A stretch of DNA of 64,000 nt from Candidatus Parcubacteria bacterium (GTDB lineage: Bacteria > Patescibacteriota > Minisyncoccia > Minisyncoccales > JAGMDC01): positions 155,651 through 219,650 of the forward strand of contig JAGMDC010000003.1 in NCBI GenBank assembly GCA_023128895.1. The letters run 5' to 3'. A program made the translations under genes and the position numbers. The notes below the pieces were generated by a model that saw nothing but the letters and a program-made list of their open reading frames with translations, did no database searches and was not told where the DNA came from. Every line of letters begins with the position of its first letter. The stretch's first letter is position 1. Shown piece after piece: positions 19,556 to 39,571 of this stretch.

Positions 19556-20617
19556 TTATTCTTGAACAACTATTTTAATGGGAATTCCGTCAGCTGTAAC
19601 AGCCATAGAAACAGGCACAGTGGGTTCAAATCTTTGAAATACTTTGCCCATTTTTCCAGTGCTGTTTATATCGTAATAATATAGAATAATACCGTCGGAA
19701 GAAACATAGTCAATTGTCTCTCTTCTAAAAGTTAAATTATAAACTGACGCGCTCCCGCTACAATATGAACCTGACCCGCTTGTAGTAATCTCAACTACAT
19801 CGCCTTGTTTTACATGATAGTACCAGGTTCCTGATTTTGTCTCGGTCTTGCATTCCCATCTCATACAGGAACTAAACGCCCAAAAAGTACACACTGAATA
19901 ACCATGAGCAGTGAGTTGTTCTTTCTCTTCTCCGTTGATATAAAGCTTAAAACTCTCCCAGTACCCTCTACACCTAGCGCTAACATTTGCAGTAACCTTT
20001 ATTACTCCTTCCCCATCTACTATTACCTCCTCCCCCTCTATTAGTGTCAAAGAATCGCTTCCGCTCTTGCCTATATGTAAAATCTCTTCTGTATTGTCGC
20101 TCTGAAACTCTTCTCCTATTGGCATTGCTCCGCCAGAATAACACATTAGTTTTCCGTCATTATTTGCCATCAAAAAACAATCATTAAATCCAGAAATATG
20201 AACATCACCCGCTCCGTCAATTTTCATTCTTTCTGTCCCCTGAGTATAAAACTCTATTTCTTCCTCTTCTTTATCTAAATAAATAGACGCTGCTGTTGGG
20301 GCGCCGGTATCTGACAATAAATGTAAATCATTATGCCCTTTTATGTAATCAGCTCTTTCAATATCTCCCTTATTACCATCAGCATTGAGATAAAGATGCC
20401 CGTCTGAAACAGTAAGAGCGGAAACAGTAAGATCCCCTGCTTTGGTCTGGGAATCACTGCTTATATTAATCAGTTCATAAATATTATCTGCTGGCAAAAT
20501 ATTTGGCGGGACATCGCCCGGCTCATCCCAAGCAGAAACAATATAGCCTATTACCGCGCTGGAAACCAAAATTACAGACGACAAAATAATTATTTTTTGA
20601 AAATTTGAACAAAGCAT
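19556..20617 (-). CDS. anchored surface protein, triplicated family member a (AWDEP motif)
   Basis: NFQK + helix + SAWDEPGDVPP. Blocks shared with the next two genes are GDIERADYIKG, EILHIGKSGSDS, FKLYINGEEKEQLTAHGY and SGSGSYCSGSASVYNLTFRR. Confidence 0.75.
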   Translation of the reverse strand: MLCSNFQKIIILSSVILVSSAVIGYIVSAWDEPGDVPPNILPADNIYELINISSDSQTKAGDLTVSALTVSDGHLYLNADGNKGDIERADYIKGHNDLHLLSDTGAPTAASIYLDKEEEEIEFYTQGTERMKIDGAGDVHISGFNDCFLMANNDGKLMCYSGGAMPIGEEFQSDNTEEILHIGKSGSDSLTLIEGEEVIVDGEGVIKVTANVSARCRGYWESFKLYINGEEKEQLTAHGYSVCTFWAFSSCMRWECKTETKSGTWYYHVKQGDVVEITTSGSGSYCSGSASVYNLTFRRETIDYVSSDGIILYYYDINSTGKMGKVFQRFEPTVPVSMAVTADGIPIKIVVQE

Positions 20618-20629
20618 ATTGAAAATTAA

Positions 20630-21646
20630 TTATTCAACAATAATAATAATCGGAATCCCATCAGCAGTAACAGCTATGGAAGTAGGGACCGCGAACTGTT
20701 TTTGTTTTGTCGCCTTTTCCATTTCTCCACTAGTATCTTTGTCATAGTAATACAAAATATCTTCTTCGGAAAAAACATACTCAACTCTATCTCTTCTAAA
20801 TGTTAAATTATAAACTGAAGCATTCCCGCTGCAATATGAACCGGACCCGCTTGTAGCAAGCTTAATTACATCGCCTTGTTTTATATGATAATACCAGGTT
20901 CTTGATTTTGCATCGGTCGCGCATTCCCACCTAAGGCAAGAGTGAAACCCCCACCAAGTACACTCCGCATAACCATTAGCAGTAAGTTGTTTTTCTAAAT
21001 TTCCATTGATATAAAGCTTAAAATTCTCCCAATACCCGCTGCACCTAGCGCTAACATACGCGGTAACCTTTATTACTCCCTCTTCGTCTATTATTGTCCA
21101 TGAATCGCTTCCGTTCTTGCCTATATGCAAAATCTCTACCTGCGTGCTTTGGAACTTATCATCTCCCGGCGCGCCTGTGCCCTCATAACATCCTATTTTT
21201 CCATTCTCATTCACCTCTAAAAAGCAATTCTTTAAGCCGGAAATATACATATCGCCGTTCCCATCAATCTTAACTCCTTCTATCGCTTGTGTGCTCAATT
21301 TTATTGCTTTCTCTCCTTTATCTAAATCAAGACAAGCATTATCCTCTGCGCTAGACCATAAATGCAAGCCATCCTGTGCTTTTATATAATTCACTCTTTC
21401 AATATCACCTCCTTTGCTGTCGTCCTCATTAAGATAAAGCTTGCCGCCTAAAGTCGTAAGTTCAGTAACAGTAAGGTCTCCGCTTTTTATTTGGGCCTCT
21501 GGACCGGCGTTGATTGGGGCATCAAGATTCCATGGCAAAGCCAATGGTGGCTCATCCCAAGCAAAAACCATATACCCAGTAATTGCGCTGAAAACTAAAA
21601 TTCCAGCAACTAAAGCAATTATTTTGTGAAAATTTAAATAAATCAT
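20630..21646 (-). CDS. anchored surface protein, triplicated family member b (AWDEP motif)
   Basis: NFHK + helix + FAWDEPPLALP. It has the same conserved blocks as its neighbours. Confidence 0.75.
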   Translation of the reverse strand: MIYLNFHKIIALVAGILVFSAITGYMVFAWDEPPLALPWNLDAPINAGPEAQIKSGDLTVTELTTLGGKLYLNEDDSKGGDIERVNYIKAQDGLHLWSSAEDNACLDLDKGEKAIKLSTQAIEGVKIDGNGDMYISGLKNCFLEVNENGKIGCYEGTGAPGDDKFQSTQVEILHIGKNGSDSWTIIDEEGVIKVTAYVSARCSGYWENFKLYINGNLEKQLTANGYAECTWWGFHSCLRWECATDAKSRTWYYHIKQGDVIKLATSGSGSYCSGNASVYNLTFRRDRVEYVFSEEDILYYYDKDTSGEMEKATKQKQFAVPTSIAVTADGIPIIIIVE

Positions 21647-21651
21647 ATAAT

Positions 21652-22656
21652 TTAAGGATTAGGAAATGAAATAGGCAGTCCGTCAGATGTTATTGCCACA
21701 GAGACAGGGACATCGGGATTATACTGATTTTCTACTTCATTCATCTTGCCCGTGCTATTGATATCATAGTAATATAAAATAGTGCCTTCGCAAGAAGCAT
21801 AGTCAATCACATCTCTTTTATATCTGAGTTTATAAACTGAAGCGCTCGCGCTAGTATTATAACTTGTTCCGCTTGTAGTAATCTTAACTACATCACTTTG
21901 CTTTATATGATAATACCAGATTCCTGAATTATTATTCTCCCAGGAATCATGCCATGGCCAATCGTATCGAAAGCCGCCGGAAACACTGATATGCTCTTTT
22001 TCTTCTCCATTGATGTAAAATTTAAAATCTGCCACTGTGCTAGAACCATACGCAGATATGCTGGCAGCCACCTTTATTACTACCTCTTGCTCTTCGTTTG
22101 GCACCGTCCAGGAATCGCTTGCGTTTATGTCTATATGTAAAATTTCTGTTTGGCTGGGCCAAAATTCATCACCGTCTGGTATCTGTCCGCCAACATAACA
22201 TCTTATTTTTCCATCTTCATCTACTTCTAAGAAACAATCACTTAATTTGAGAATATGCATTTTACCATTTTTATCAACTTTCATTTTTTCATCTCCTTTG
22301 ATAGAAAATTTTATCTCTTTATTTTGGTTATCTAAATGAACAGACGCTATATTAAACGGATCCGAATCTAAATATAAACCATCTTGGCCTTTTATGTAAT
22401 CTACCCGCTCAATATCTCCTTCTTCGCCATCATCATTAAGAAAAACCTTATTGCCCGAAGCAAAAAGAGAAGAAACAGCAAGAGCGCCTTGTTTGGTTTG
22501 AGCAACAGGGCCAATATTTATCGGCGTCGGCGTGTTTTCCTGCGGCTGCTCAGCAGTGGGACCATCCCACGCAAAAACAATATATCCCATTGCAGCGCTC
22601 AAAACTAAAACTCCGCCTGTAAGCGCAATTGTTTTTTGAAATTTTGAGAAATACAT
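21652..22656 (-). CDS. anchored surface protein, triplicated family member c (AWDGP motif)
   Basis: KFQK + helix + FAWDGPTAEQP. This is the most divergent copy and lacks the Cys pattern of a and b. Confidence 0.75.
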   Translation of the reverse strand: MYFSKFQKTIALTGGVLVLSAAMGYIVFAWDGPTAEQPQENTPTPINIGPVAQTKQGALAVSSLFASGNKVFLNDDGEEGDIERVDYIKGQDGLYLDSDPFNIASVHLDNQNKEIKFSIKGDEKMKVDKNGKMHILKLSDCFLEVDEDGKIRCYVGGQIPDGDEFWPSQTEILHIDINASDSWTVPNEEQEVVIKVAASISAYGSSTVADFKFYINGEEKEHISVSGGFRYDWPWHDSWENNNSGIWYYHIKQSDVVKITTSGTSYNTSASASVYKLRYKRDVIDYASCEGTILYYYDINSTGKMNEVENQYNPDVPVSVAITSDGLPISFPNP

Positions 22657-22710: not shown

Positions 22711-23100
22711 TTAAAATTCTTCCACAGCGTTTTCAAAATGTAAAATTTCTGGCTTTTGGGTTTCCAAATCAATTTTAATGCTAATAATATCAATTTGCCA
22801 GGGCGTATCTAAAGAAAATTTATTTTGTGTCAGCCAAATTTGCGCGAGTTTCTGCAATTTTCTCTGTTTGCGAAAATCAACTCTTTGCTCCGGGGCGATT
22901 CCTTTGCCTGAACTCAAAGTTTTCACTTCCACAAACCTTATAACATCGTCTTTTCCCGCGATAATATCAATCTCCCCGAATTTGCGTCCTGTCCTTGTTT
23001 TCTGAATCCAATTTCTCGCCAATATATCAAAATCTTTGCTTTCAAGATAATCACGCGCAATCTTTTCCCCTAATTCGCCTAATTGTTTACGGTTTATCAT
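22711..23100 (-). CDS. yraN: YraN family (UPF0102) endonuclease-like protein
   Basis: GELGEKIARDYLESKDFDILARNW...GEIDIIAGKDDVIRFVEVKT is the typical YraN core. Confidence 0.8.
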   Translation of the reverse strand: MINRKQLGELGEKIARDYLESKDFDILARNWIQKTRTGRKFGEIDIIAGKDDVIRFVEVKTLSSGKGIAPEQRVDFRKQRKLQKLAQIWLTQNKFSLDTPWQIDIISIKIDLETQKPEILHFENAVEEF

Positions 23101-23270
23101 AGTGGTGTTTGTTGGACAAAGTCCGAACTTATTTTAAACAAAATCCCGACGCTGACTGACCCCCGACTATATACACTTTTAGTGTTTTATTTCGGCTGGC
23201 TCGGGGGCAGGCTGCTGCCTGCCCCCTCGCTTTAATTTATTCGGGAAAACAGGCGGTTTTAAGGTAAAAA
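23099..23270. repeat. 172-bp inverted repeat, left copy (IR-L)
   Basis: The reverse complement of 24674-24845 matches with 5 mismatches by hand alignment. It contains a 10-bp GC hairpin, GGGGGCAGGC-tgct-GCCTGCCCCC, at 23203-23226. Confidence 0.9.
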
Positions 23271-23384: not shown

Positions 23385-23624
23385 ATGTCAAGTCAAAATA
23401 ATATCTTAAAATCAAATATCGGTAAAAATATAAAAAAATTGAGACAGAAAAAAGGGATTTCTCAAGATAGATTATCAAAGATAGCCGATTTATCTCTGAA
23501 TACAATTGTGAATATTGAAACCGGTAATAATCCAAATCCAACCCTTGAGACACTTCAAAAAATAGCTAAAGCTCTCAATGTTTCCGTTGATGAGTTATTG
23601 AAATTAATATATGACCAGAAATAA
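23385..23624 (+). CDS. XRE-family helix-turn-helix transcriptional regulator
   Basis: IGKNIKKLRQKKGISQDRLSKIADLSLNTIVNIETGNNPNPTLETLQKIAKALNVSVDELL is a classic Cro/C1 HTH. Confidence 0.85.
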   Translation: MSSQNNILKSNIGKNIKKLRQKKGISQDRLSKIADLSLNTIVNIETGNNPNPTLETLQKIAKALNVSVDELLKLIYDQK

Positions 23625-24471
23625 AATTATTAAAGCATTGATAACAAGATTATTTGTAGCACTTATTGCCTTTAGTGTTGTTGGTTGGATTATTTTATTC
23701 GGTAAGAATCTGCCGGATAGTGTCACGCCTATTGTTTACGCGATAATCGCTGTCTCGATTATTACTTCAATTTATGTTCTCTGGAAGAAACCAAATTTAC
23801 TGCGTAATAAAAAAGTTATCATTGGGATGGTCGTTTTTATAATCGTTGGTGCCATCGGCTGGTTAACATCAATCTCTGAAATTACTGAATGCAGACCTTA
23901 CAAATGTGGAGAAGATTTTATTTGTGCAAAACCAACTGATTTAGGTTTAAAAATAACAATGGGCGAATGTTCTTCTGAGTTTATAGAAAATATAGATTTC
24001 TATTGCGTAAAGGAAAATAATATTTGTATTAAACATCCAATTAATTTCACGATTGATCAAGTAGAAAAATCTATTACGGACTATTTATTAACACAAAAAT
24101 ATTTCAGCTGGAAGACAGCAACTGACAGCCGTAATTTTTGCGTTATTGAGAATTTAAATCCGGCAGAAGACGGCTTGTTTCCATTGTATGTTTGGGTTCG
24201 CTGCGGGGAGTTTGTTTTGCAAAACGGCAAATTAAAGGGATTAAGCGGGATATCGGCGCCGGCTAAAATAAATTATCCGAACCACTTGTCGTTTTATGAT
24301 ATAAATAAAATGTCTCATGAAACGCCAAGAAGCGGTTCGCTGTATTCAAAAGACATCAAGGCAATATTTCCTCTAAATGTACAAGAAGTGATTTTTGGTT
24401 TTTATATTCCCAATCTTTCCAATATCAGTAAAAAACTTGAGTCAGTTGCGCTTAGTGGCTTGAAGCAATAA
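23611..24471 (+). CDS. membrane protein of unknown function (3 predicted TM helices plus Cys-containing extracytoplasmic domain)
   Basis: Overlaps the XRE gene by 14 nt. Hydrophobic segments are FVALIAFSVVGWIILF, IVYAIIAVSIITSIYVLW and IIGMVVFIIVGAIGWL. No recognisable catalytic motif. Confidence 0.6.
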   Translation: MTRNKIIKALITRLFVALIAFSVVGWIILFGKNLPDSVTPIVYAIIAVSIITSIYVLWKKPNLLRNKKVIIGMVVFIIVGAIGWLTSISEITECRPYKCGEDFICAKPTDLGLKITMGECSSEFIENIDFYCVKENNICIKHPINFTIDQVEKSITDYLLTQKYFSWKTATDSRNFCVIENLNPAEDGLFPLYVWVRCGEFVLQNGKLKGLSGISAPAKINYPNHLSFYDINKMSHETPRSGSLYSKDIKAIFPLNVQEVIFGFYIPNLSNISKKLESVALSGLKQ

Positions 24472-24673: not shown

Positions 24674-24845
24674 TTTTTACCTTAAAACCGCCTGTTTTCC
24701 CGAATAAATTAAAGCGAGGGGGCAGGCAGCAGCCTGCCCCCGAGCCAAAGAAAATAAAACACTAAAAGTGTATGTAGTCGGGGGTCAGTCAGCGTCGGGA
24801 TTTTGTTTAAAATAAGTTCGGACTTTGTCCAACAAACACCACTAT
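24674..24845. repeat. 172-bp inverted repeat, right copy (IR-R)
   Basis: See IR-L. Together the two copies bracket 23271-24673. Confidence 0.9.
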
Positions 24846-24912: not shown

Positions 24913-24992
24913 ATAAATAAATATAATCCCAGGGTTTTTTGAAATCAATTGAAAATTTTTGAAAGGAAATTTTAGGGTTCGAGCCGATTTTC
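24913..24992 (-). pseudogene. relic of a serine-recombinase 3' end (inverted relative to the intact gene)
   Basis: The minus-strand translation KKIGSNPKISFQKFSIDFKKPWDYIYL aligns with KKIGSDCTIASQKLSIDFKKPWNYLYF at the C-terminus of the 25091-26710 product. The DNA is also similar to 26455-26535. Confidence 0.55.
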
Positions 24993-25090
24993 TTCTTTCG
25001 CCTTCGGCGAAAGGCAAAGCGAAATTTTATTAATTTTATTAAATTGTCGGCGCAAGCGTTTCTTTTTTCAATTATCAAATTATTAATACT

Positions 25091-26710
25091 ATGATTAAAT
25101 ATTTCATCTATTGCAGAAAATCGTCAGAGGACGAAGAACGGCAAATCTTGTCTATTGAAGCCCAACTCGCGGAACTGCGCGAATACGCAAAGCAAAACGG
25201 GATTTTTGTTGTCCGCGAGTTTGTTGAATGTAAAACCGCCAAAGAGCCGGGGCGGGAAATATTTAATCAAATGCTTTCCGAGATTGAAAAAGGAAACGCC
25301 GAGGGAATTTTAGCGTGGAATCCAGACAGACTGGCTCGCAATTCTATTGACGGCGGAAAAATCATCTATCTCGTTGACACTGGAAAAGTCGCCTCGCTAA
25401 AATTCCCGACATTTTGGTTTGAGCCAACGCCGCAGGGAAAATTTATGTTATCTGTCGCTTTTGGGCAGGCAAAATATTACACCGACAATTTAAGAGAAAA
25501 CATTTTGCGGGGAATTAGGCAAAAAATTCGCAGAGGCGAACTTTCGGCAAAAGCCCCAATCGGATATTTCAACGAACCGAGATTGAGAACTATTGAACCA
25601 GACAGAAATACTTTCAAAAAAGTGAAAAAGATTCTGTGGGCTTTTGCCTCTGGAAAATACACGCTAACAGCAATTCAAAGCAAAATGTTTTCTCTTGGCT
25701 TGATTGGTAAGGACGGAAAACCGCCTCATCTGTCAACAATACAGAGTATACTCACAAATCCGTTTTACTACGGACATTTCAAATATCGCAATGAAATTCA
25801 TCAAGGAAGCCACAAGCCAATGATTTCAAAGAAACTTTTTGACAAAATCCAGCAAGCGCTCAAAGACAATAGCAAACCGCGACATAGTAAAAAAGACAAA
25901 GGTTTTCTTTTTTTGGGTTTTGCCAAATGTGGAGAGTGCGGCTATTGTATTACCGCTGAACGCAAGATTAAAAAAAACGGCAAGAAATACACATATTATC
26001 GCTGTACCAAAAAAAGTAAAATTCAAAAATGCTCTCAAAACCGATTTTTGCGGGAAGAAAAACTCGCGGAACAGGTAAAAGAAATTTGTCAAAAAGTTTC
26101 TTTGTCTGATGATTGGCAAGAAAAATATCTGAAAAAAGTTGATGAATGGGAAAAAGAAAATTGCACATTGTCAAATCTTTTCGCTCAAAATCTCAAAACA
26201 GAATTAAACAAAGTCAAAACAAAAATACAACGCCTCACTGACGCCTATTTGGAAGGCGGTTTTGAATTATCGGAATTTCAGCAAAATAAAAACGCCTTAA
26301 TGGCGCGAAAAAAAGATATTGAGGAAAAATTATCAGATTTTGAGCGAAAAGGAAATAATTGGCTCGGACTTGTTCGGAATTGGATAATTGAAGCCAATCA
26401 AGCTAAAAATCTCGCTTTAACAGAAAATTTTGCCGAGATGAAAAATTTTCTGAAAAAAATCGGCTCGGACTGTACAATCGCCTCTCAAAAACTTTCAATT
26501 GATTTCAAAAAACCTTGGAATTACCTTTATTTTGCGAAGCAAAACAAGGTTCTTGAAGCGAAAACGAAAGCGAAAGGTTCTTATTTTTTGCCTTTGCAAA
26601 CGAGGGGCGAAGCCCCGAGCGACGCGGAAAATCAAGTAAATCGTAAAATGTGGACCTGGCGGGAATCGAACCCACATCAGAGCAATGCGAATGCCCTCTT
26701 CTACCATTAA
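25091..26710 (+). CDS. large serine recombinase (resolvase domain + recombinase domain + zinc ribbon + coiled coil)
   Basis: YCRKSSEDEERQILSIEAQ (catalytic Ser region), DRLARN, CGECGYCITAE...YYRC zinc ribbon, and a long coiled coil. The last about 60 nt of the ORF are antisense to tRNA-Ala, so the true C-terminus is uncertain. Confidence 0.85.
   Translation: MIKYFIYCRKSSEDEERQILSIEAQLAELREYAKQNGIFVVREFVECKTAKEPGREIFNQMLSEIEKGNAEGILAWNPDRLARNSIDGGKIIYLVDTGKVASLKFPTFWFEPTPQGKFMLSVAFGQAKYYTDNLRENILRGIRQKIRRGELSAKAPIGYFNEPRLRTIEPDRNTFKKVKKILWAFASGKYTLTAIQSKMFSLGLIGKDGKPPHLSTIQSILTNPFYYGHFKYRNEIHQGSHKPMISKKLFDKIQQALKDNSKPRHSKKDKGFLFLGFAKCGECGYCITAERKIKKNGKKYTYYRCTKKSKIQKCSQNRFLREEKLAEQVKEICQKVSLSDDWQEKYLKKVDEWEKENCTLSNLFAQNLKTELNKVKTKIQRLTDAYLEGGFELSEFQQNKNALMARKKDIEEKLSDFERKGNNWLGLVRNWIIEANQAKNLALTENFAEMKNFLKKIGSDCTIASQKLSIDFKKPWNYLYFAKQNKVLEAKTKAKGSYFLPLQTRGEAPSDAENQVNRKMWTWRESNPHQSNANALFYH
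26580..26635 (-). repeat. nested-hairpin element, short copy inside the recombinase 3' end
   Basis: The minus strand reads GATTTTCCGCGTCGCTCG-GGGC-ttc-GCCC-CTCGTTT...AAAATAAG, with the same flanks as the HAD-gene copies. Confidence 0.5.
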
Positions 26711-26721
26711 AATACAGGCCC
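26651..26721 (-). tRNA. tRNA-Ala (anticodon CGC)
   Basis: Hand fold: acceptor GGGCCTG/CAGGTCC with the G3:U70 alanine identity pair, anticodon stem GGGCA/TGCTC, loop TTCGCAT, T-arm GTGGG-TTCGATT-CCCGC. 71 nt, no encoded CCA. Confidence 0.85.
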
Positions 26722-26733
26722 ATATTGTTTTTG

Positions 26734-26804
26734 TCGGGATGCCGAGATTCGAACTCGGGCTGCCGCCTCCCGAAGGCGGTATGCTACCATTACACCACAC
26801 CCCG
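26734..26804 (-). tRNA. tRNA-Pro (anticodon CGG)
   Basis: Hand fold: acceptor CGGGGTG/CATCCCG, anticodon stem CCGCC/GGCGG, loop TTCGGGA, T-arm CCGAG-TTCGAAT-CTCGG. 71 nt, no encoded CCA. Confidence 0.85.
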
Positions 26805-31892: not shown

Positions 31893-31965
31893 ATTTTTTT
31901 ACCACCTTTCTCCTATTTTTTTATTCTTATGTACCTTGATTCAATATCAAATTATTGCGACTTCG

Positions 31966-32050
31966 CCGCATAATTGTTCGCTCGGTCAAAATACAAACAA
32001 ACTCGCTTCGCTCGCTTGTTTGTATTTTTTCCTCGCTCTCAATTATCGCA
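31966..32050. repeat. nested-hairpin element, intergenic copy
   Basis: GCATAATTG-TTCGCTCGGTC-[AAAATACAAACAA actcgcttcgctcgc TTGTTTGTATTTT]-TTCCTCGCTCTC-AATTATCGC. Confidence 0.7.
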
Positions 32051-32160: not shown

Positions 32161-33357
32161 ATGTTAAATACATATAAAACAATTATAGGGGTTGGACTGG
32201 TGATGTTATTATGCGGAATAGGAATTTTCGCATACTATACAATAAACGAGAAAAAAAATGGTCGGAGACCCGAGCTCCGACCAACTCAACAACAAAGCGA
32301 GCAGAAAATCGCGGATGTAAAAGACCAGGAATTAAAAGAGCAAATCGGACAGATGTTAATGATTGGATTTCGCGGCACAGAAATTTCAAAGGATTCATAT
32401 ATTGTTCAGGAAATGGAGGACCTGAACATAGGCGGAGTAATATTATTTGATTATGATGTTCCTTCAAAAAGTTTTCCCAGAAACATCATCAGCCCAAAGC
32501 AGACAAAAAATCTTATTGCTGATTTGAAAAAATTCTCTGGGACTCCCCTATTTGTGGCAATAGACGCGGAAGGCGGGAAAGTAAATCGATTAAAAGAAAA
32601 ATACGGATTTATTGCTATGCCAAGCCCGCAGAAACTTGGTGCGCAAAATAATCCAGAGGAAACAAAAAAAATCAGCGCCGCGCTCGCGCGCCAACTCGCT
32701 GATTTAGGATTTAATGTAAATTTCGCGCCGGTAGTTGATGTTAATATAAATCCAGACAACCCAATTATCGGCGGCATTGGAAGAACATTTTCAAACGAAC
32801 CAAACAAAGTAGTTGAGCAGGCACTGGCTTTTATAGAAGGTCATAGCGAACCCGGCATTATAACTTGCTTAAAGCATTTTCCCGGACATGGAAGTTCGCG
32901 AAACGACAGTCATTTAGGAATGGTTGATATCACCAACACATATCAAGATAAAGAACTTATTCCTTTTGAAAAAATTATTGAACAGGAAAAAGCGTGTATG
33001 GTAATGACCGCGCATATTATTAATAAAAATATTGACTCGGAATATCCAGCCACTTTATCGCCTTTGTTTATCCAAAACATACTCCGTGAAAAATTAGGAT
33101 TTAACGGAGTAATTGTTTCAGATGATATGCAGATGGGCGCTATTACAGAACATTATGGATTTGACGAGGCAATTATCAGAGCCATAAACGCTGGATGCGA
33201 TTTATTGATTATTTCAAACAACGGCAAAATATATGACGAACAAGCGCCAGAGCAAGCGCGCGATATTATTTTCAATGCCGTGAAGCAAGGCAAAATTTCT
33301 CGCGAGCAAATTACCCAATCCTATCTCCGTATTATTACCCTGAAGTCAAAACTTTAA
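32161..33357 (+). CDS. nagZ: beta-N-acetylhexosaminidase (GH3, NagZ-like) with N-terminal membrane anchor
   Basis: GQMLMIGFRG, GGVILF and KHFPGHGSSRNDSH are GH3 motifs. Confidence 0.8.
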   Translation: MLNTYKTIIGVGLVMLLCGIGIFAYYTINEKKNGRRPELRPTQQQSEQKIADVKDQELKEQIGQMLMIGFRGTEISKDSYIVQEMEDLNIGGVILFDYDVPSKSFPRNIISPKQTKNLIADLKKFSGTPLFVAIDAEGGKVNRLKEKYGFIAMPSPQKLGAQNNPEETKKISAALARQLADLGFNVNFAPVVDVNINPDNPIIGGIGRTFSNEPNKVVEQALAFIEGHSEPGIITCLKHFPGHGSSRNDSHLGMVDITNTYQDKELIPFEKIIEQEKACMVMTAHIINKNIDSEYPATLSPLFIQNILREKLGFNGVIVSDDMQMGAITEHYGFDEAIIRAINAGCDLLIISNNGKIYDEQAPEQARDIIFNAVKQGKISREQITQSYLRIITLKSKL

Positions 33358-35412
33358 ATTATTGATTTGTTTCCAGTTTGTTTCGTCTAATACGATTAAT
33401 TGGTCCTCACCTATTATATATAAGTAGTCATTGATATAAATCGCGCGCTTAGCCGCAATACCGCTAACAGCCCGCTTAAGCGCCAACTTGTCCTGTTCGT
33501 AAGAAAAAATATAACCGCCTTTGCTGCCCGGCAAAAAGAATATCTTGTGTTTTGTGTCTAAAAGAAACGCGTGATGAGTATTAAGAACATCTGACCAATG
33601 TTCGTCTAAAATATATTTGTCGGCTTCCTTTGGCTCGCTCGGCGAACTTACATCAAACAGAGAAATTTTCACTTTCCAGCCCTCTTTGCCTATTCCTAAA
33701 ATTTTGTCTTCGGTAATTGGATGCAGATACGAAGAATATCCCGGAATTTTCAATTCTCCTTTTAATTCCGGATTATACGGATCTGACAAATCCAGAACAT
33801 AAAACGGATCTATCTGCCTGTATGTTACTACATATCCCTTATTACCGACAAACCTCACAGAATAAATTTTTTCTGTAACGCCTAAATCTTTCACAGAACC
33901 GGTGATGTTCAAATTACTGTCCGCGACATAAACATCATTAGCGCTCTCCCCTACATTCCAGAACATACCTCCCATACCCCTGTCCCCAATCGTCACGGCC
34001 ACTCTTAAATAACCTTGATATTCGTCCAAAGAAAATTGATTCAATGGCTTGCCCGGAAATACTCCGTTTGCCGCAAGAGCAAACCCGTCTAATTTTATTT
34101 TCACAATTCCTGTTTTCTCAAAATCTCTGCTGTGTTTCGCGTAATAATCATCCATCCTATTGGTAAATTCGTTTTCTATTCTCATTCTTTCATCATCGCT
34201 TAAAGAACTCTGAAACTTATCAAGAATAACTCCGAACTCCACCATTTTAGCTCTATCGCTTATATCAAGGTCTTTGAGTTTTTCTAATTTTTCAATTACC
34301 CAGGCAGGAACTATGTCTTGACAATCTTTTTGAAAAAAATCATAAAAGAAATTAATCACGCTCTCATAATAAGAATAACTGATATAAATTCCATTTTTCG
34401 ACATATAAACAACTGATTGGCTTGAAGAACCAACAAACGACACAGTTTTCTCAATCTCGCCTGTTTCTGGATTTAATACCATAGCGCTGTAAGTTATATC
34501 CACTGGTACTGGAACTCTTGGGTAGTAAATTTGCGAACACCCAATCTCTAATGCTTTGCCTTCTATATATAATGGCCTGATTGGGCAAGGCCTGTAAGTG
34601 TCAATTCTGCTTTTAACAACTAAATATACTTTTCCCTGATATAGGCGGGACGAAACCAAATAATTTCTATTTTCCAATTCCATATCCCATTTCTTGTTTG
34701 GCTTCTCTGGATTAGACACATCATAGCCGATAATTTCCTGACCTGAAAAAACCACTAAAATATTTTCTGATAAAAGCAGATTTCCAGTTTGTTCAATTTC
34801 CGAATCAATTTTCAAATCAGAAGGCGGAAACGCTTTTATTGCTTTAATCCCCCTGTTCTGGGGTTTGGGAATTTCTATCCCCGGCGCGATTTCGTCCATA
34901 TCAAAAGCCCTTATCGGAAAATACCATCTCTGCGGAGAAAAATAAATTTCTTTGCCGTCTGTTTTGACAATGTCCGGCTCGTCAATTCCCGCTGTTTGGA
35001 CAGTTGTTTCTGACACGCGCTCCATTGTTTCTTCTCCTGCTCCAATCCCTGCTTCAAGTGTCGGGACTGACATTCCCTCTGCTACATCCATTCCTTTCCT
35101 CACTCCAGTAATTGAAATCCCTTCATAATATCCAGTTATTTCTGCTGCGCTCGACTCCAAATAATCCTTAAATTCCTGTTCCGAAGAAAATTTGGCAATT
35201 CCTTCCAATGACGCGGGACCCGGTTCAGGCTTTTCTGGTTTTGGCGCTAAAATATCAGATAAAAATGGAATATTAATCCGCTCCATAAATGGCGCGATAG
35301 GCGTTGTTGAAAAAGAAATATTTTGATATTGAGAAAACGCAAAACCGAAAATCACAGCAACCACAACACATAAACAAACCAATAAAAGTTTAGAATTAAT
35401 TTCTTGTTCCAT
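33346..35412 (-). CDS. secreted beta-propeller domain protein (COG4880-like)
   Basis: YSVRFVGNKGYVVTYRQIDPFYVLDLSDPYNPELKGELKIPGYSSYLHPI is typical of the bacterial/archaeal beta-propeller family. N-terminal TM or signal segment. Confidence 0.7.
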   Translation of the reverse strand: MEQEINSKLLLVCLCVVVAVIFGFAFSQYQNISFSTTPIAPFMERINIPFLSDILAPKPEKPEPGPASLEGIAKFSSEQEFKDYLESSAAEITGYYEGISITGVRKGMDVAEGMSVPTLEAGIGAGEETMERVSETTVQTAGIDEPDIVKTDGKEIYFSPQRWYFPIRAFDMDEIAPGIEIPKPQNRGIKAIKAFPPSDLKIDSEIEQTGNLLLSENILVVFSGQEIIGYDVSNPEKPNKKWDMELENRNYLVSSRLYQGKVYLVVKSRIDTYRPCPIRPLYIEGKALEIGCSQIYYPRVPVPVDITYSAMVLNPETGEIEKTVSFVGSSSQSVVYMSKNGIYISYSYYESVINFFYDFFQKDCQDIVPAWVIEKLEKLKDLDISDRAKMVEFGVILDKFQSSLSDDERMRIENEFTNRMDDYYAKHSRDFEKTGIVKIKLDGFALAANGVFPGKPLNQFSLDEYQGYLRVAVTIGDRGMGGMFWNVGESANDVYVADSNLNITGSVKDLGVTEKIYSVRFVGNKGYVVTYRQIDPFYVLDLSDPYNPELKGELKIPGYSSYLHPITEDKILGIGKEGWKVKISLFDVSSPSEPKEADKYILDEHWSDVLNTHHAFLLDTKHKIFFLPGSKGGYIFSYEQDKLALKRAVSGIAAKRAIYINDYLYIIGEDQLIVLDETNWKQINNLKF

Positions 35413-35478
35413 AATTTTGAGCGAGGAATAAATGCGGAAATGAATTTTCGCATTTATTCCGAGCGATTAATTATGCGG
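35409..35478. repeat. nested-hairpin element, copy in the beta-propeller gene leader
   Basis: The minus strand reads CCGCATAATT-AATCGCTCGG-[AATAAATGCG aaaattcatttc CGCATTTATT]-CCTCGCTC-AAAATTATGG. Confidence 0.7.
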
Positions 35479-36165
35479 CTTTGCCGCAATAATTTTTGGT
35501 TTATTAGTTCGCGCCAAAAAATATTTCAAAAAAATATTTTTTGATTAAACCAATAAATCCTTTCATTTTATTATAATACTCACTCTTATTGTACCACTTC
35601 CTAAAAATAGCGCAAAACAAAACTGTCAAAGGTTCAACCTCCGACAGTAAAAATTTCCAGTATGATATACTAAAAATACAAAGACTCATTTTCCGAACCA
35701 TCACCGGATGGCGGCGTGCCCGGGACTACCGGGATAGGAAATGGGTCGTTTTTTTTCATTTTCAGATTCTACACAAGTTTTTTACACATTCAACTCCTTC
35801 AAAAACAAAAGATTGAATCCCTAATTTTTTGGCTACTTCAATATTCTCCTTTGAATCGTCAAAATAAATACATTCTTCGGGTTTTAAATTATTCTCTACT
35901 AATAAGTTTTTGTAGGCTTCCGGATTTGGTTTAACAAATCCTGTTTGCCAAGAATAATAAACTTTATCAAAAATTTCTTCTAAAAATGGAAATGTTTTTT
36001 TATAATAATTTGCTCTTTCAATAAAATTATTCGACAAAACAAAAATTTTAACGCCTCTATTTCTTAATTTTTTAACCAATTCAATCATCTCGGGCACTTC
36101 TTTTTCTGCGCTAAACCAGAAATCAAAAAATTGTTCTTCTGCTAGTTCAATGCCCCATTTTTCTA

Positions 36166-36265
36166 AATGAACCCTACGGGATACATTTTCTGCGTTCGCT
36201 CTAGAATATAAACAAACTTCGCTTCGCTCGTTTGTTTATATTCCTCTCGCTCACTTGAAAATAAG
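36166..36265 (-). repeat. nested-hairpin element, HAD insert 2 (100 nt)
   Basis: The minus strand reads CTTATTTTCAAGTGAGCGAGAGG-[AATATAAACAAAC gagcgaagcgaa GTTTGTTTATATT]-CTAGAGCGAACGCAGAAAATGTATCCCGTAGGGTTCATT. Confidence 0.75.
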
Positions 36266-36385
36266 ACTTCCAATAATCAAAAGAACTACCGGCATTCGGC
36301 TTTCTCGCTTTTGCCATTATGTTTTTCAACGCAGGTAAAAAATCTTCTTTTGAAACGCCAAATTCTTTTTGGAATCTATCGCTTA

Positions 36386-36489
36386 AATGAATCCCCAGAC
36401 GAAGTCCGGGGATACATTTTCCGCGTTCGCTCGGAAGCCCAAGCGAGAGTATTCTCGCTTGGGCTTCCCTCGCTTCACTTGAAAATAAG
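36386..36489 (-). repeat. nested-hairpin element, HAD insert 1 (104 nt)
   Basis: The minus strand reads CTTATTTTCAAGTGAAGCGAGG-[GAAGCCCAAGCGAGA ata CTCTCGCTTGGGCTTC]-CGAGCGAACGCGGAAAATGTATCCCCGGACTTCGTCTGGGGATTCATT. Confidence 0.75.
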
Positions 36490-36577
36490 GACTTTGGATA
36501 AAAATTCCATTAAGGTCAAAAATAATTGCTTTTATCATATTTTTTATATTTTACCACTTTATAAAATTTAGCGCAAA

Positions 36578-36640: not shown

Positions 36641-39571
36641 TTACGCGATTTTGCCGCGGATGAATTCTTTTGCTTTAATTTGCGCAATCTTTAATTGAAG
36701 CAATTTCTTTGCCTGAAATTCCTGATATTTTCTTTTGCGCAATTCAAACCAATCCTGAATGTCAATAATGTATGACTTGAACAGCCAGATCAAGAACAGG
36801 GCGATTGCCAATGGAATAAAGAATGAATCAAGAAAAATGTTATTGGTTAATCCTGTGGAAACGCCTGTTGCAACTGCGGCAGTAGTTGTCTTTATTCTGT
36901 TTACCATAATATTAATGGTGTCTGATTCTTCAATCTCGGTGTCTTCAGAAATGACAACAACAGAATTCTTTAACAATGTTTGCCCAATATTAAAGTGCGT
37001 TAAACCTGCTACATAAGCATTATAAGTAATTGTCTTCTTCTTATTCGCGGATATATCGCCGACATTTAACCCGGAAAATATATCGCCTGTTGAAGAAATT
37101 CCGCTCACTTTAAGAGAACCAGATTGATAAATCATTCTGTCAGGCAGAGTGTCTTCAACTACTATATTATAGATCTTGGCGTCTTTTGCCCTTACCACAA
37201 TAGAGAAAGAAATAACATCGTTTGGCTCCGCGGGAACATAAGTTGTCCAAGGTCCGCCGTCAGTGAGATTGCGGCCTAATTTCTCCACCGTCATTTCGCC
37301 TTGCTCCGGCTCGGAAGAAACTCTTACTGCGACGCTGTCGCTCGCTGTGCCGCCGTCGCCTGTGCAAGTGATAGTATATGTCTTGTTAGATGTAAGATGA
37401 TTTGTTATTTCTGAACCGGATAAAGATCTGGAACCAGACCAGGCGTTGGACGCGTAACAGGAATTAGCGTTGCTTGATGTCCAAGTTAAATTGGCTGTAG
37501 TGTCATAATCAATTGTAATAGGCCCGTTAGACCCGTCTGCCTTGATGTCAACTGTCGGCGCGGAAACGCAGTCCTGCGCGTTCACAGGAACTGTTGCCTG
37601 GGCTGACAATAATTCCCTTTCAACCATAACTTTGGCTGTGTAAGTTCCAGGATTTGAATAATTGCAAAGATTGTAAGCAGTGTAATTATTGTCGTTTCTT
37701 GTAATTATTTTTTCCCAATTGCCGTCATTTTCGCAGTCAAAAAAATATGTTATAAGCCCGGTTGCGGTGCCATAGACATTGGCGTTCAAATCAACATTTT
37801 GCAACGGAGCACATCCGGAATTTGGGTTGGCTGTGAAAGTAACATAAAGCGTTGGCGACTCGTGCACCTTGACTAAGATATTCATAGAATCAGAATCGCT
37901 CAAGCCATAAGGGTCTGTTACGGTTAATGTACAGGTGTATGTTGTTTCAGACGAAACAGAAGGAGCGTAATACAATGGCTGGGCTATGCTTGAACTGGAC
38001 AGTGTGCCCCCGGTACAAGACCAGGAATAAGTAATCTCGTCTCCGTCCGGGTCAGTGCCTGAACCCTGTAAAACAATGGATTCTGTTTCGTATGTCTCTT
38101 TATCGAGGCCGGCATTGGCAACAGGCGGATTGTTCAGTTGCGCGTTAACCGCGACAGTCACGCTGTCCTGCGCATACCCGCTCGTGCCGGAACAACTAAT
38201 AGTATATGTCTTTGAAGATATAAGACTGCCAGTGGATTCTGCGCCTGAAATAGGTTTTTCGCCTGTCCAATCATTATAAGCATAACAAGAATCAGCGTTC
38301 TCCGACATCCAGGTTAATTCTGCTGAAGTATTATAATCAATAGTGATTGGCCCGTCAGAGCCATTTGCCTTAATATCAACTGTTGGAACCAACGGCTGTT
38401 CAACATTAACGGTCACACTATCGCTCACAGAACCGCCTATGCCTGAACAAATAATAGTATATGTTCTGGAAGATGTTAAAATATTAGTGAATTCTGAACC
38501 AGACAAAGATTTGTCTCCAGACCACGCACCAGTAGCATAACAAGAATCAGCGTTCTCCGACACCCAGGTTAATTCTGCTGAAGTGTTATAATCAATTACG
38601 ATAGGCCCGTCAGAACCATTGGCTTTGATGTCAACTGTCGGCTCGGCGGGCTGTTCCACATTAACTGTTACGCTATCTACCGCATAGCCAACCTGCCCTG
38701 TGCAAGTAATTGTATATGTTTTAGAAGATATCAAATTGCCAGTCTGTTCAGAGCCAGATAACGGCTTATCTCCAGTCCAATCTCCTGTGGCATGGCAAAA
38801 GTCAGAATTTTCAGAAACCCAGGTTAATCTCGCTGAAGTATTATAATCAATTGTGACAGGACCGTCAGACCCATTTGCCTTAATATCCACTGTCGGCTCG
38901 GCTGGCTGTTCAACATTAATAGTAACGCTATCTGTCGCTGTTCCGCCTTCACCTGTGCAAGTAATTGTAAAAGTTGTGTTTTCTGTTAAATAACAAGATG
39001 TTTCTGTACCGCTTAATGGCTTGCTTGTTGCAAACCAATCGCCGCATCCGCCAGAAGGAACGCAGGCATCAGCGTTTTCTGATGTCCAGACCAATTCAGC
39101 TGTATTATTATAATCAACAGCAATCGGACCGTCAGACCCATTTGCCTTAATATCAACCGTCGGAGCAGGACATTCAGTTGTAAATGTCTTATCAGCGCCA
39201 TAAGAAATTCCCTGATTATTTTTTGCTAACACCCTAAAATAATAAGTCGTGCATCTTGAGAGTTCTGAAACATTTGTAGAAAACGGTCCTGTATAAGAAC
39301 GATACACCCATGAAGTTGAATTATCATAATCGGTAGATGTTCCATACTGAAACCGATAATACATACTATTGCACCCGCCAGCGCTGGTTATTCTTCCATT
39401 TAAAGTTGCGGAAATCTCAGTGATACTTGTCGCATCTTCTGTAACCACTGTAGGCCGGATAGGCGTACACCGCCACGCTGAAGCAAACAAAGGCAAAACT
39501 AAGCCAATACAAATTAAGGAAATTATAATTCCCTTCTTAAAATCGAACATACTAGTCGTTTTATTAGTCAT
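36641..39571 (-). CDS. giant cell-surface protein: FN3-like, 5 x Ig-like repeats, PKD-like, DUF11-like domains, C-terminal TM anchor
   Basis: Five repeats of PTVDIKANGSDGPI.IDYNTSAELTW.SENADSC. PKD-like region NPPVANAGLDK...GSGTDPDGDEITYSW. The C-terminus ATGVSTGLTNNIFLDSFFIPLAIALFLIWLF is followed by a long basic tail. Confidence 0.8.
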   Translation of the reverse strand: MTNKTTSMFDFKKGIIISLICIGLVLPLFASAWRCTPIRPTVVTEDATSITEISATLNGRITSAGGCNSMYYRFQYGTSTDYDNSTSWVYRSYTGPFSTNVSELSRCTTYYFRVLAKNNQGISYGADKTFTTECPAPTVDIKANGSDGPIAVDYNNTAELVWTSENADACVPSGGCGDWFATSKPLSGTETSCYLTENTTFTITCTGEGGTATDSVTINVEQPAEPTVDIKANGSDGPVTIDYNTSARLTWVSENSDFCHATGDWTGDKPLSGSEQTGNLISSKTYTITCTGQVGYAVDSVTVNVEQPAEPTVDIKANGSDGPIVIDYNTSAELTWVSENADSCYATGAWSGDKSLSGSEFTNILTSSRTYTIICSGIGGSVSDSVTVNVEQPLVPTVDIKANGSDGPITIDYNTSAELTWMSENADSCYAYNDWTGEKPISGAESTGSLISSKTYTISCSGTSGYAQDSVTVAVNAQLNNPPVANAGLDKETYETESIVLQGSGTDPDGDEITYSWSCTGGTLSSSSIAQPLYYAPSVSSETTYTCTLTVTDPYGLSDSDSMNILVKVHESPTLYVTFTANPNSGCAPLQNVDLNANVYGTATGLITYFFDCENDGNWEKIITRNDNNYTAYNLCNYSNPGTYTAKVMVERELLSAQATVPVNAQDCVSAPTVDIKADGSNGPITIDYDTTANLTWTSSNANSCYASNAWSGSRSLSGSEITNHLTSNKTYTITCTGDGGTASDSVAVRVSSEPEQGEMTVEKLGRNLTDGGPWTTYVPAEPNDVISFSIVVRAKDAKIYNIVVEDTLPDRMIYQSGSLKVSGISSTGDIFSGLNVGDISANKKKTITYNAYVAGLTHFNIGQTLLKNSVVVISEDTEIEESDTINIMVNRIKTTTAAVATGVSTGLTNNIFLDSFFIPLAIALFLIWLFKSYIIDIQDWFELRKRKYQEFQAKKLLQLKIAQIKAKEFIRGKIA

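Follow-up and report, generated by a model that had tools for sequence, protein, structure and literature searches.

Recombination at folded single-stranded sites, with exchange of one strand, is established for the attC sites of integrons and for attP of the CTX phage, and at the right end of IS608-type elements a target, an element end of the same sequence and an internal complementary segment stand together. Other small elements of bacterial genomes are the palindrome-associated miniatures of the IS200/IS605 group, served by the Y1 HUH transposase TnpA acting on single-stranded DNA; the REP and REPIN palindromes, mobilised by RAYT; and the MITEs and in-gene palindromes, such as Correia, RUP, ERIC and the RPE of Rickettsia. 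The genomes of CPR/Patescibacteria are small and gene-dense. A family of hairpins of about 100 nt is spread across the lineages of Parcubacteria. We describe it from a 64-kb stretch of one such genome (the whole of the DNA analysed, referred to below as the window). What is most informative about the family, and had escaped the original prediction, is that its members interrupt a gene, and that a segment at their flank repeats the target sequence.

Results

Copies of the hairpin element in the window

The window has a G+C content of 37.8%, and its segment from 22161 to 43357 is 99.98% identical to a Parcubacteria (CPR) metagenome scaffold (L001; ENA ERZ23498683 scaffold_3; sequences from other sources are cited below by such L numbers). 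A near-identical protein is recorded under the name Candidatus Parcubacteria bacterium. No gene linked to the elements was found, and their neighbourhood in the window holds only housekeeping genes, among them those for a CCA-adding enzyme, TyrRS, HSP20, a GH3 enzyme, a beta-propeller protein and a HAD hydrolase. The original prediction had counted at least six copies of one architecture. A covariance model, R1, built from 29 copies (4 from the window and 25 from elsewhere), recovers four of them, A to D, at or near the places predicted, with scores, filters off, of 58.3, 54.7, 44.1 and 31.3 bits, respectively (E 2e-16 to 2e-7); beyond these four, the same scan gives no significant match anywhere in the 64 kb. 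When folded as single strands, A to D differ from shuffled sequences by z = -2.9 to -8.

Element A (31947-32046, plus strand) is flanked by divergent genes, precedes the GH3 (NagZ-like) gene by 115 nt and displays the whole design: X-left TCAAATTAT (31947-31955), a small 5′ hairpin with arms GCGAC and GCCGC, X′ CATAATTG (31969-31976), box1 TCGCTCGG (31978-31985), an inner hairpin of 13 bp with the loop TCGCTTCGCTCG, box2 CCTCGCTC (32031-32038) and X-right TCAATTAT (32039-32046). Hairpins of this kind break assemblies; two Logan contigs end within this element. Element B (35411-35496, minus strand) overlaps the ATG of a beta-propeller gene (688 aa) and reads, on the minus strand, AAAATTAT, GCGGC-aaa-GCCGC, ATAATTAA, TCGCTCGG, an inner hairpin of 10 bp, CCTCGCTC and AAAATTAT again. 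Elements C (36165-36258, plus strand) and D (36385-36482, plus strand) are insertions of 94 and 98 nt that lie antisense within the HAD hydrolase gene; the box1 of C is a variant, TCGCTCTA, as is the box2 of D, CCCTCGCTT, and the inner hairpin of D is G+C-rich and 16 bp long.

The other predicted copies fare less well. The one at 26.6 kb, placed by the prediction at 26580-26635 and here at 26590-26636 on the minus strand, reads ATTTTCCGCG-TCGCTCGG-GGC ttc GCC-CCTCG and scores 8.2 bits, which is not significant; neither the 5′ hairpin nor the right end is present, and the sequence folds no better than shuffles (z = +0.4). It is a truncated relic, which we call relic E, and it matches the left part of the C/D subfamily over 18 nt with one indel, ATTTTCCGCG(T)TCGCTCGG being common to it and D. 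Its position is just 3′ of a tRNA-Ala gene, in the tail of a serine recombinase ORF. The cores of the two arms of a 172-nt inverted repeat are marginal: the left one (23197-23232, plus strand), TGGCTCGG-GGGCAGGC tgct GCCTGCCC-CCTCGCTT, scores 10.5 bits (E 1.2), and the right one (24713-24747, minus strand), with the same motif, scores 14.7 bits (E 0.049). All that they share with the family is GGCTCGG-hairpin-CCTCGCT, and it is doubtful that they are even distant relatives of it. Three tRNA genes are present in the window, and the R1 scan places no significant element at any of them.

Architecture and the box helix

The elements measure about 85 to 100 nt. On the strand that bears TCGCT, the order in A to D is X, then the core of a small hairpin, then a short A/T segment, X′, which is the reverse complement of X; box1 TCGCTCGG and box2 CCTCGCTC follow, with a variable hairpin between them, and a second X stands either directly after box2 or a few nucleotides beyond it. 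This second X is where the flanking target starts, and in the family at large many copies, though not all, have the upstream X as well. Hence the predicted order of outer stem, box, inner hairpin and box is borne out in A to D, as is the statement that the flanking hexamers, here box1 and box2, are direct and not inverted repeats. The outer stem is complementary, as predicted, but the pairing is not exclusive: its left arm, X′, can in predicted foldings pair instead with the upstream copy of X and so form the 5′ hairpin. The stems had also been said to differ completely between copies. This is correct for the inner stems of B and D, but those of A and C are nearly alike, with the loop TCGCTTCGCTCG in both, which leaves only three independent inner stems in the window, not six. 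Terminal inverted repeats are absent from the elements; for C and D, this was judged by eye over all possible boundary registers.

The boxes themselves had been regarded as single-stranded, and this holds for some of their positions only. Set opposite each other, box1 TCGCTCGG and box2 CCTCGCTC make a helix with two 2-bp steps separated by TC/TC mismatches. The pairs G8-C1′, C4-G5′ and G3-C6′ are found in 29/29 aligned copies and G7-C2′ in 28/29, whereas T5C6/T3′C4′ and T1C2/T7′C8′ are paired in none of the 29. For C4-G5′, the model-based alignment has 44 copies with CG, 4 with UA and none unpaired. Over the 18 modelled pairs, 70.1% of cells are paired, as against 59.1% in shuffles (a value reached by 0 of 500), cells changed on both sides number 134 as against 63, and the covariation score is 0.267 as against 0.132 (again reached by 0 of 500) and at most 0.158 when the partners are slid, all of these figures being subject to the caveat that the alignment was fitted to R1 itself. 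The box helix and the stems are maintained through compensatory change, and the claim of a selected, structured family stands. That the mismatches are kept fixed while the adjacent pairs covary argues that the folded form is what is recognised. In the stems, G·T and A·C mismatches are about equally common (19 versus 17, and 22 versus 15), with no wobble bias pointing to RNA or to DNA.

Insertion into otherwise continuous sequence

The gene for the HAD-IA hydrolase (35762-36538, minus strand) is split by D and C into three pieces (36483-36538, 36259-36384 and 35762-36164), which lie in two frames of the minus strand, C and D each shifting the frame. When D and C are removed in silico, an ORF of 585 nt results, and its 194-aa product aligns without gaps to 15 aligned homologues (of 120 listed; 738 found), with identity of up to 81%. 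The D site falls between the Tyr and Leu of SPY|LSDRF, and the C site between the Tyr and Leu of KSY|LEKWG; because both sites encode (P/S)-Y-L, their extended similarity comes in part from coding. Both inserts are bounded by ATTT on the gene strand, the boundary of C being ambiguous by the 4 nt AAAT, and in the HAD orthologue of L247 both sites are uninterrupted (CCTTATTTGAGC and CCTTATTTAAAA). The pieces are free of further defects. Relative to strain L248, exon 3 has six synonymous and four non-synonymous changes, which are weak evidence on the decay of the gene because they are too few and the divergence between the strains is mosaic. The simplest reading, and the most likely one, is that the HAD gene is a recent pseudogene that was inactivated by C and D. 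Gene callers split or miss genes at such hairpins, and HAD is annotated as fragments of 108 to 129 aa.

A similar picture is seen at the other two copies. In element B, X-right ends in AT, and these two bases belong to the ATG (35412) with which the beta-propeller gene starts; the 8 nt AAAATTAT flank the element on both sides as an 8-bp duplication. The orthologues of this gene in L249-L251 (74 to 78% identity) are without the element, as in the empty site CAAAAATTATTATGGAACAA, and their start context reads ...AAAAATTAT(TAT)GGAACAA or ...CAAAAATTAT(TAT)GGAACAA. Element A is likewise missing from L249, where the equivalent intergenic spacer is about 105 nt shorter, while the 94%-identical strain L248 carries B and C at the same places. 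The genes in whose 5′ regions A and B lie stay intact. The elements have been inserted into sequence that is otherwise continuous, whether that of a gene, of a start-codon context or of the 5′ end of a tRNA.

tRNA and start-codon sites

For ten copies, the final base of box2 is the one directly before position +1 of a tRNA: tRNA-Met in L214, L219, L245 and L253, tRNA-Thr in L219 and L236, tRNA-Asp in L219 and L253, tRNA-Arg in L232 and tRNA-Ile in L241. An eleventh, weak match precedes a tRNA-Thr gene in L254. Since the tRNA promoter is upstream of the element, the latter is transcribed into the pre-tRNA leader. In many copies of this type, the first 8-9 nt of the tRNA recur 25-45 nt upstream of box1, and X′ is the complement of those 8-9 nt, often with one bulged base (e.g., GCGGCTGTA, GCCGATGTA and GCTCCCGT). 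The X′ of the tRNA-Met elements is poor, and thus the rule that X and X′ mimic the target is not universal. In the A/B-type subfamily, X is AATTAT and commonly overlaps an ATG (B, L211, L223 and L226) or a TATAAT-like box (L213, L220 and L228). Among 41 copies, the direct repeat of X-left and X-right has a mean of 6.2 versus 4.9 in shuffled controls, and the X′ complement a mean of 5.5 versus 4.0; the flanking direct repeat ranges from 4 to 11 nt and is mostly 8-9 nt, with 4 nt for C and D.

The tRNA-Met gene of L254 is an empty site, and an element is present there in L214, L219 and L253. These orthologous copies keep the 5′ hairpin and the boxes, in which a switch from C-G to T-A is the only change, and between L214 and L253 the inner stem has changed at 14 of 39 positions, every change being a transition and every one compensatory. 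At the tRNA-Asp gene of L252, only the hairpin and TCGCTCT remain. This suggests that the tRNA-Met copies have been resident for long under some host-level constraint, like REP elements, which are both mobile and useful. A sigma-70 or leaderless promoter within the element was considered and rejected, since box2 directly adjoins tRNAs (0 nt) and stands 6-24 nt from the start of ORFs, and no -10 box lies at a usable distance; elsewhere in the host genome, TATAAT boxes stand 5-8 nt before ATGs.

The family beyond the window

A scan of JGI metagenome contigs with a pattern of both boxes and A/T-rich stem bases yielded 36 loci of the same design, and in nearly all of them the boxes enclose a perfect hairpin. 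R1 gave 47 matches at E < 1e-3, with values down to 1e-19, in 45 sources; 18 of these matches lie outside the training set, and there were further matches in loci fetched later, L248 and L253 included. A covariance-model scan had been proposed with the original prediction, and copies do extend beyond the host genome. They lie on Parcubacteria/Paceibacterota-like contigs of related groundwater bacteria; for L219, which is of the tRNA type, the closest protein relatives are named Paceibacterota, Parcubacteria and Kaiserbacteria. Genome contigs scanned with an A/C loop pattern gave 82 loci, almost all of them unrelated high-G+C repeats, and only one, L172 from Candidatus Paceibacterota, was member-like; the species of the window was absent from that set. 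The scan of viral contigs (TCGCTCGG N20-50 CCTCGCTC) returned mostly high-G+C noise, and among the matches listed only one phage sequence looked related, with a similar element upstream of a terminase-like gene on two contigs (L026/L091).

There are several signs of proliferation. Near-identical copies occur in four unrelated contexts: before rpsC (L223), before a 109-aa ORF (L226), in L218 and on another contig (L225). The copy in L218 is antisense in the 16S/tRNA-Ile spacer, and that in L239 converges on tmRNA. Elements form tandem arrays in L213, L217 and L236, the right end of the C/D subfamily, CACTTGAAAAT, recurs at a different locus in L247, and the presence or absence of elements varies among related genomes. 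Rfam gave no family match at the gathering score, nor any between 22500 and 37000 at E up to 5, and neither a match in Rfam 15 nor a description of such elements from CPR bacteria in the full-text literature was found. No described family matched it.

A partner gene, such as an HUH/Y1 transposase co-occurring with the copies, had also been envisaged, and here the outcome was negative in the window, in its flanks and beside the related copies. By Pfam assignment, no transposase, HUH nuclease or tyrosine recombinase is encoded in the 64-kb window or in about 20 kb of extra flank; an all-against-all BLASTP of 231 ORFs from 37 loci found no recurrent neighbour gene, only syntenic duplicates; and no RAYT gene was seen in the window, in the flanks or beside the 37 related loci. 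The sole recombinase nearby is the large serine recombinase beside relic E, of a type that is not known to make 8-9-bp duplications.

Discussion

We put at roughly 0.55 the probability that these are a small, non-autonomous family of mobile DNA hairpins of Parcubacteria, probably moved in trans by way of a folded single strand, with X′ choosing the targets. Among the candidates raised by the original prediction, a recognition site for a transposase is the one favoured. In the mechanism that we envisage, a protein encoded elsewhere would bind the box helix on the folded single strand, the bound enzyme would cut and join at the foot of that helix, and pairing of X′ with the target would bring the element to land immediately 5′ of the matching sequence. 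If X′ does select the target, subfamilies with different X′ should land differently, with AAAT for C/D, AATTAT for A/B and tRNA positions 1-9 for the relatives. Such a logic would resemble single-strand transposition of the IS200/IS605 or attC type. Indeed, on the opposite strand the layout is a target, an element ending in the same short sequence, and a complementary segment 5′ of the terminal hairpin, the same arrangement as at the right end of IS608-type elements.

Several observations count against this reading. No mobilising enzyme was found in the window, in its flanks or recurrently beside the 37 related loci. The flanking repeat is variable, with 4 nt in C and D and 6-11 nt in other copies, and a single transposase does not usually produce such a range. 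That X′ fits each different tRNA in turn is explained poorly by a pure model of a pre-existing guide; the mechanism then needs later compensatory adaptation or copying of the target, and the match could reflect selection to sequester X′ from the 5′ strand of the tRNA, or correction within the hairpin. Most copies are just upstream of a gene and co-oriented with it, and some of these genes are essential (rpsC and the tRNAs). The compensatory transitions in the inner stem of the tRNA-Met copies look like host-level selection on structure and, more weakly, the HAD pieces without further defects indicate a gene that is not simply decaying. As to what kind of entity this is, we would tentatively name two forms that the evidence may fit, though we hold the proposal itself to be unlikely: a minimal, single-hairpin mobile element with an insertion site programmed by base pairing, or a module co-opted as a 5′-leader switch for tRNAs and leaderless-type mRNAs.

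The same observations can be turned around, and the most serious rival holds that the elements are a cis-acting 5′-leader RNA module of the host, with the copies in HAD being accidental. X′ would pair either with the upstream X, leaving the gene start free, or with the downstream gene start, sequestering the AUG or the 5′ strand of the tRNA, and a protein that binds the box helix would govern which of the two prevails. The prevalence of upstream, co-oriented copies with ten at tRNA +1, the alternative pairing of X′ in predicted folds, the upstream tRNA promoters with the transcription within pre-tRNA that these entail, and the orthologous copies whose boxes and 5′ hairpin are kept while the inner stem is altered only by compensatory transitions are all in keeping with it, as are six independent copies, that at the rpsC locus included, which stand 6-24 nt from a downstream ATG, an interval that contains no Shine-Dalgarno sequence. 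A leader module does not, however, account for C and D, antisense in a coding gene whose frame they shift, or for the copies antisense in an rRNA operon spacer (L218) and convergent on tmRNA (L239). It is further opposed by the patchy presence among close relatives with empty orthologous sites, by the lack of any element at the window's own three tRNA genes, by the parity of G·U and A·C in the stems and by the lack of an Rfam family match. We regard it as possible, but unlikely. The opposite extreme, in which the copies are ordinary intrinsic terminators or chance hairpins, has the stable hairpins and the mostly intergenic positions in its favour, and is the least credible of all: there is no T-run after the stems, the copies are placed at the 5′ ends of genes or inside one, their orientation is mixed, and the conserved 8-nt boxes support R1 matches with E down to 1e-19. 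The original prediction had excluded a plain terminator on its own reading, and with C and D antisense in a coding gene we agree.

Two further proposals turn on details of the insertion sites. The elements could be folded, attC-like or att-like recombination sites, used by a tyrosine recombinase or a tRNA-associated large serine recombinase with X as the crossover core. The series X, loop, X′, mismatch helix, variable hairpin and X fits the product of a one-strand exchange, tandem arrays exist, the window has a large serine recombinase next to relic E and tRNA-Ala, and a homologue of it with 36% identity lies beside the tRNA-Thr with the weak element in L254. That no recombinase recurs beside the copies, and that GTTRRRY/RYYYAAC motifs, an integron integrase and cassette ORFs are all lacking, makes this improbable; serine recombinases, moreover, exchange at a 2-bp core and not at one of 8-9 bp. 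More improbable still is that the inserts are intervening sequences, removed or bypassed at the level of RNA or translation, and that HAD is functional. The perfect ORF left by excision of both inserts, the lack of other lesions, the six synonymous versus four non-synonymous changes in exon 3 relative to L248 and an internal segment, GGAAAATG on the mRNA strand, that can pair with both junctions would suit this idea, but the same elements are intergenic in either orientation and match no ribozyme or intron family, group I and group II included. No known self-splicing intron comes near to being as small as 94-98 nt. Translational bypass of the HAD inserts was rejected because the take-off and landing codons mismatch (UAU versus CAU), and an archaeal bulge-helix-bulge intron was set aside on account of the bacterial gene content, since a bacterial host has no archaeal splicing endonuclease.

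If X′ truly selects the target, the mobile hairpins would be a compact natural case of DNA insertion directed by base pairing. They would constitute a very small guide-directed insertion system, widespread in CPR bacteria, in which lineages could retarget to the first 9 nt of tRNAs or to start-codon contexts. If instead the elements are RNA leaders, they would be a new regulatory module for the 5′ ends of tRNAs and mRNAs, in organisms in which expression signals are almost unknown.

Comparison with known systems

In logic, one near parallel is with the IS200/IS605 miniatures. These, too, have no terminal inverted repeats and function through hairpins near both ends, and they insert beside a short specific sequence that is repeated at the far end of the element and is complementary to an internal segment next to a hairpin; the seamless removal of C and D in silico is a further likeness. 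IS200/IS605 elements insert 3′ of a conserved 4-5-nt target and do not duplicate it. The ATTT that, on the minus strand, both flanks C and D on the left and ends them is compatible with such a target; B and the tRNA-type copies have identical repeats of 8-9 nt. The differences are that IS200/IS605 elements have similar left and right hairpins where this family has one conserved hairpin type, that flanking identity is often 8-9 nt here versus 4-5 nt there, that the complementary segment here is a continuous Watson-Crick stem, and that no TnpA was found in any sequence examined here.

With the attC sites of integrons and attP of the CTX phage, the family has in common a structure that is conserved while its sequence varies, unpaired conserved positions in a long hairpin, a variable terminal hairpin, an outer stem that shares the sequence of the neighbouring site, and arrays. 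Unlike attC, the copies lack an R″/R′ consensus (RYYYAAC and GTTRRRY, with the crossover at G|TT), have no integrase or cassette ORFs in their surroundings, and have a shared core that differs between subfamilies.

REP and REPIN sequences are likewise short, abundant, mostly extragenic palindromes with conserved ends and a variable loop, in a hairpin unit of about 100 nt that is tolerated within transcription units. However, the present elements have no GTAG/CGTC tag, their boxes are direct repeats with fixed mismatches and not two inverted REPs, they land exactly at the starts of genes and also inside one, and they belong to a different host phylum. Much the same can be said of the MITEs and in-gene palindromes, which are multicopy, of about 100 nt and folded when transcribed, and which land in genes (RPE) or next to promoters (Correia). 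TIR-MITEs have terminal inverted repeats and a fixed target duplication (e.g., TA), whereas here such repeats are missing and the flanking repeat varies from 4 to 11 nt. RPEs preserve the reading frame of the gene that they enter, and C and D do not. The family is closest in logic to the IS200/IS605 miniatures and to folded attC/attP sites, and closest in lifestyle to REP/REPIN.

Copies of the hairpin family and related sequences

Assemblies are broken by elements of the hairpin family; the Logan contigs L003 and L004, which come from independent short-read assemblies, both terminate within the inner hairpin of the family copy element A, at window position 31993. Outside the window, a phage element in which the conserved boxes (box1 and box2) flank the inner hairpin scores 40.9 bits with the family's covariance model and is found on the IMG/VR contigs L026 (200-250) and L091 (1565-1615), which represent one phage sequence, both with a terminase-like gene. 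A run of other G+C-rich hairpins precedes the element, which is located some 150 nt upstream of the terminase-like gene. A reduced arrangement is seen upstream of a tRNA-Asp in locus L252 (8986-9063), where only a hairpin followed by TCGCTCT is present, directly abutting the tRNA +1, and where box1 and the 5′ hairpin are both absent. Either an element has decayed here, or the arrangement is a minimal ancestral form. The repeats at L130, L157, L178 (Pelistega sp.), and at many loci of high G+C content within L125-L204, are unrelated to the family. These CGCTTCGCTCG-rich sequences, among them CTCGCTTCGCTCGCTCAGGATGAC units in tandem and a palindromic repeat of Pelistega, were caught by the pattern built on the inner-hairpin loop, and give rise to false positives for TCGCT-type patterns.

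Genomic surroundings

A match to the Rfam DUF3800-IX RNA motif (35683-35751, plus strand; 51.3 bits vs a gathering score of 36.8) sits in the spacer between the HAD hydrolase gene and family copy element B, antisense to both neighboring genes, and no DUF3800 gene lies near it. About one-third of the window genes are without a Shine-Dalgarno sequence and have instead a TATAAT-like box 5-8 nt 5′ of the ATG (e.g., tgtgATATAATggaaatATG; the ATGs concerned include those at 32161, 30942, 22656, 36538, 40405, and 1761), which suggests that leaderless mRNAs are frequent; strong GGAGG sites are present at other window genes.

The 976-aa PKD/Big-repeat surface protein gene (36641-39571, minus strand) carries 4-5 tandem coding repeats of 255 nt (63-87% identity), and three paralogues arranged in tandem (353, 338, and 334 aa; 19556-22656, minus strand) share segments 67-85% identical. 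The 172-nt inverted repeat arms (23099-23270 and 24674-24845) enclose a gene of the XRE HTH type (23385-23624) together with an ORF for a 286-aa membrane protein (23611-24471). Since these arms, 97% complementary in the window, are 100% complementary in the near-identical scaffold L001, they are undergoing homogenization, or else the 1.4-kb segment is inverting.

A large serine recombinase gene (25091-26710, plus strand; Resolvase, Recombinase, and Zn_ribbon domains) has an 81-nt inverted repeat at each flank (24915-24995 and 26452-26532; 84%), and the tail of its ORF enters tRNA-Ala (26650-26721, minus strand) antisense; tRNA-Pro follows (26733-26804, minus strand). A homologue, 36% identical, in locus L254 (7533-9083) likewise overlaps a tRNA gene, tRNA-Thr. 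The serine recombinase loci look like a tRNA-targeting integrative element family of Parcubacteria.
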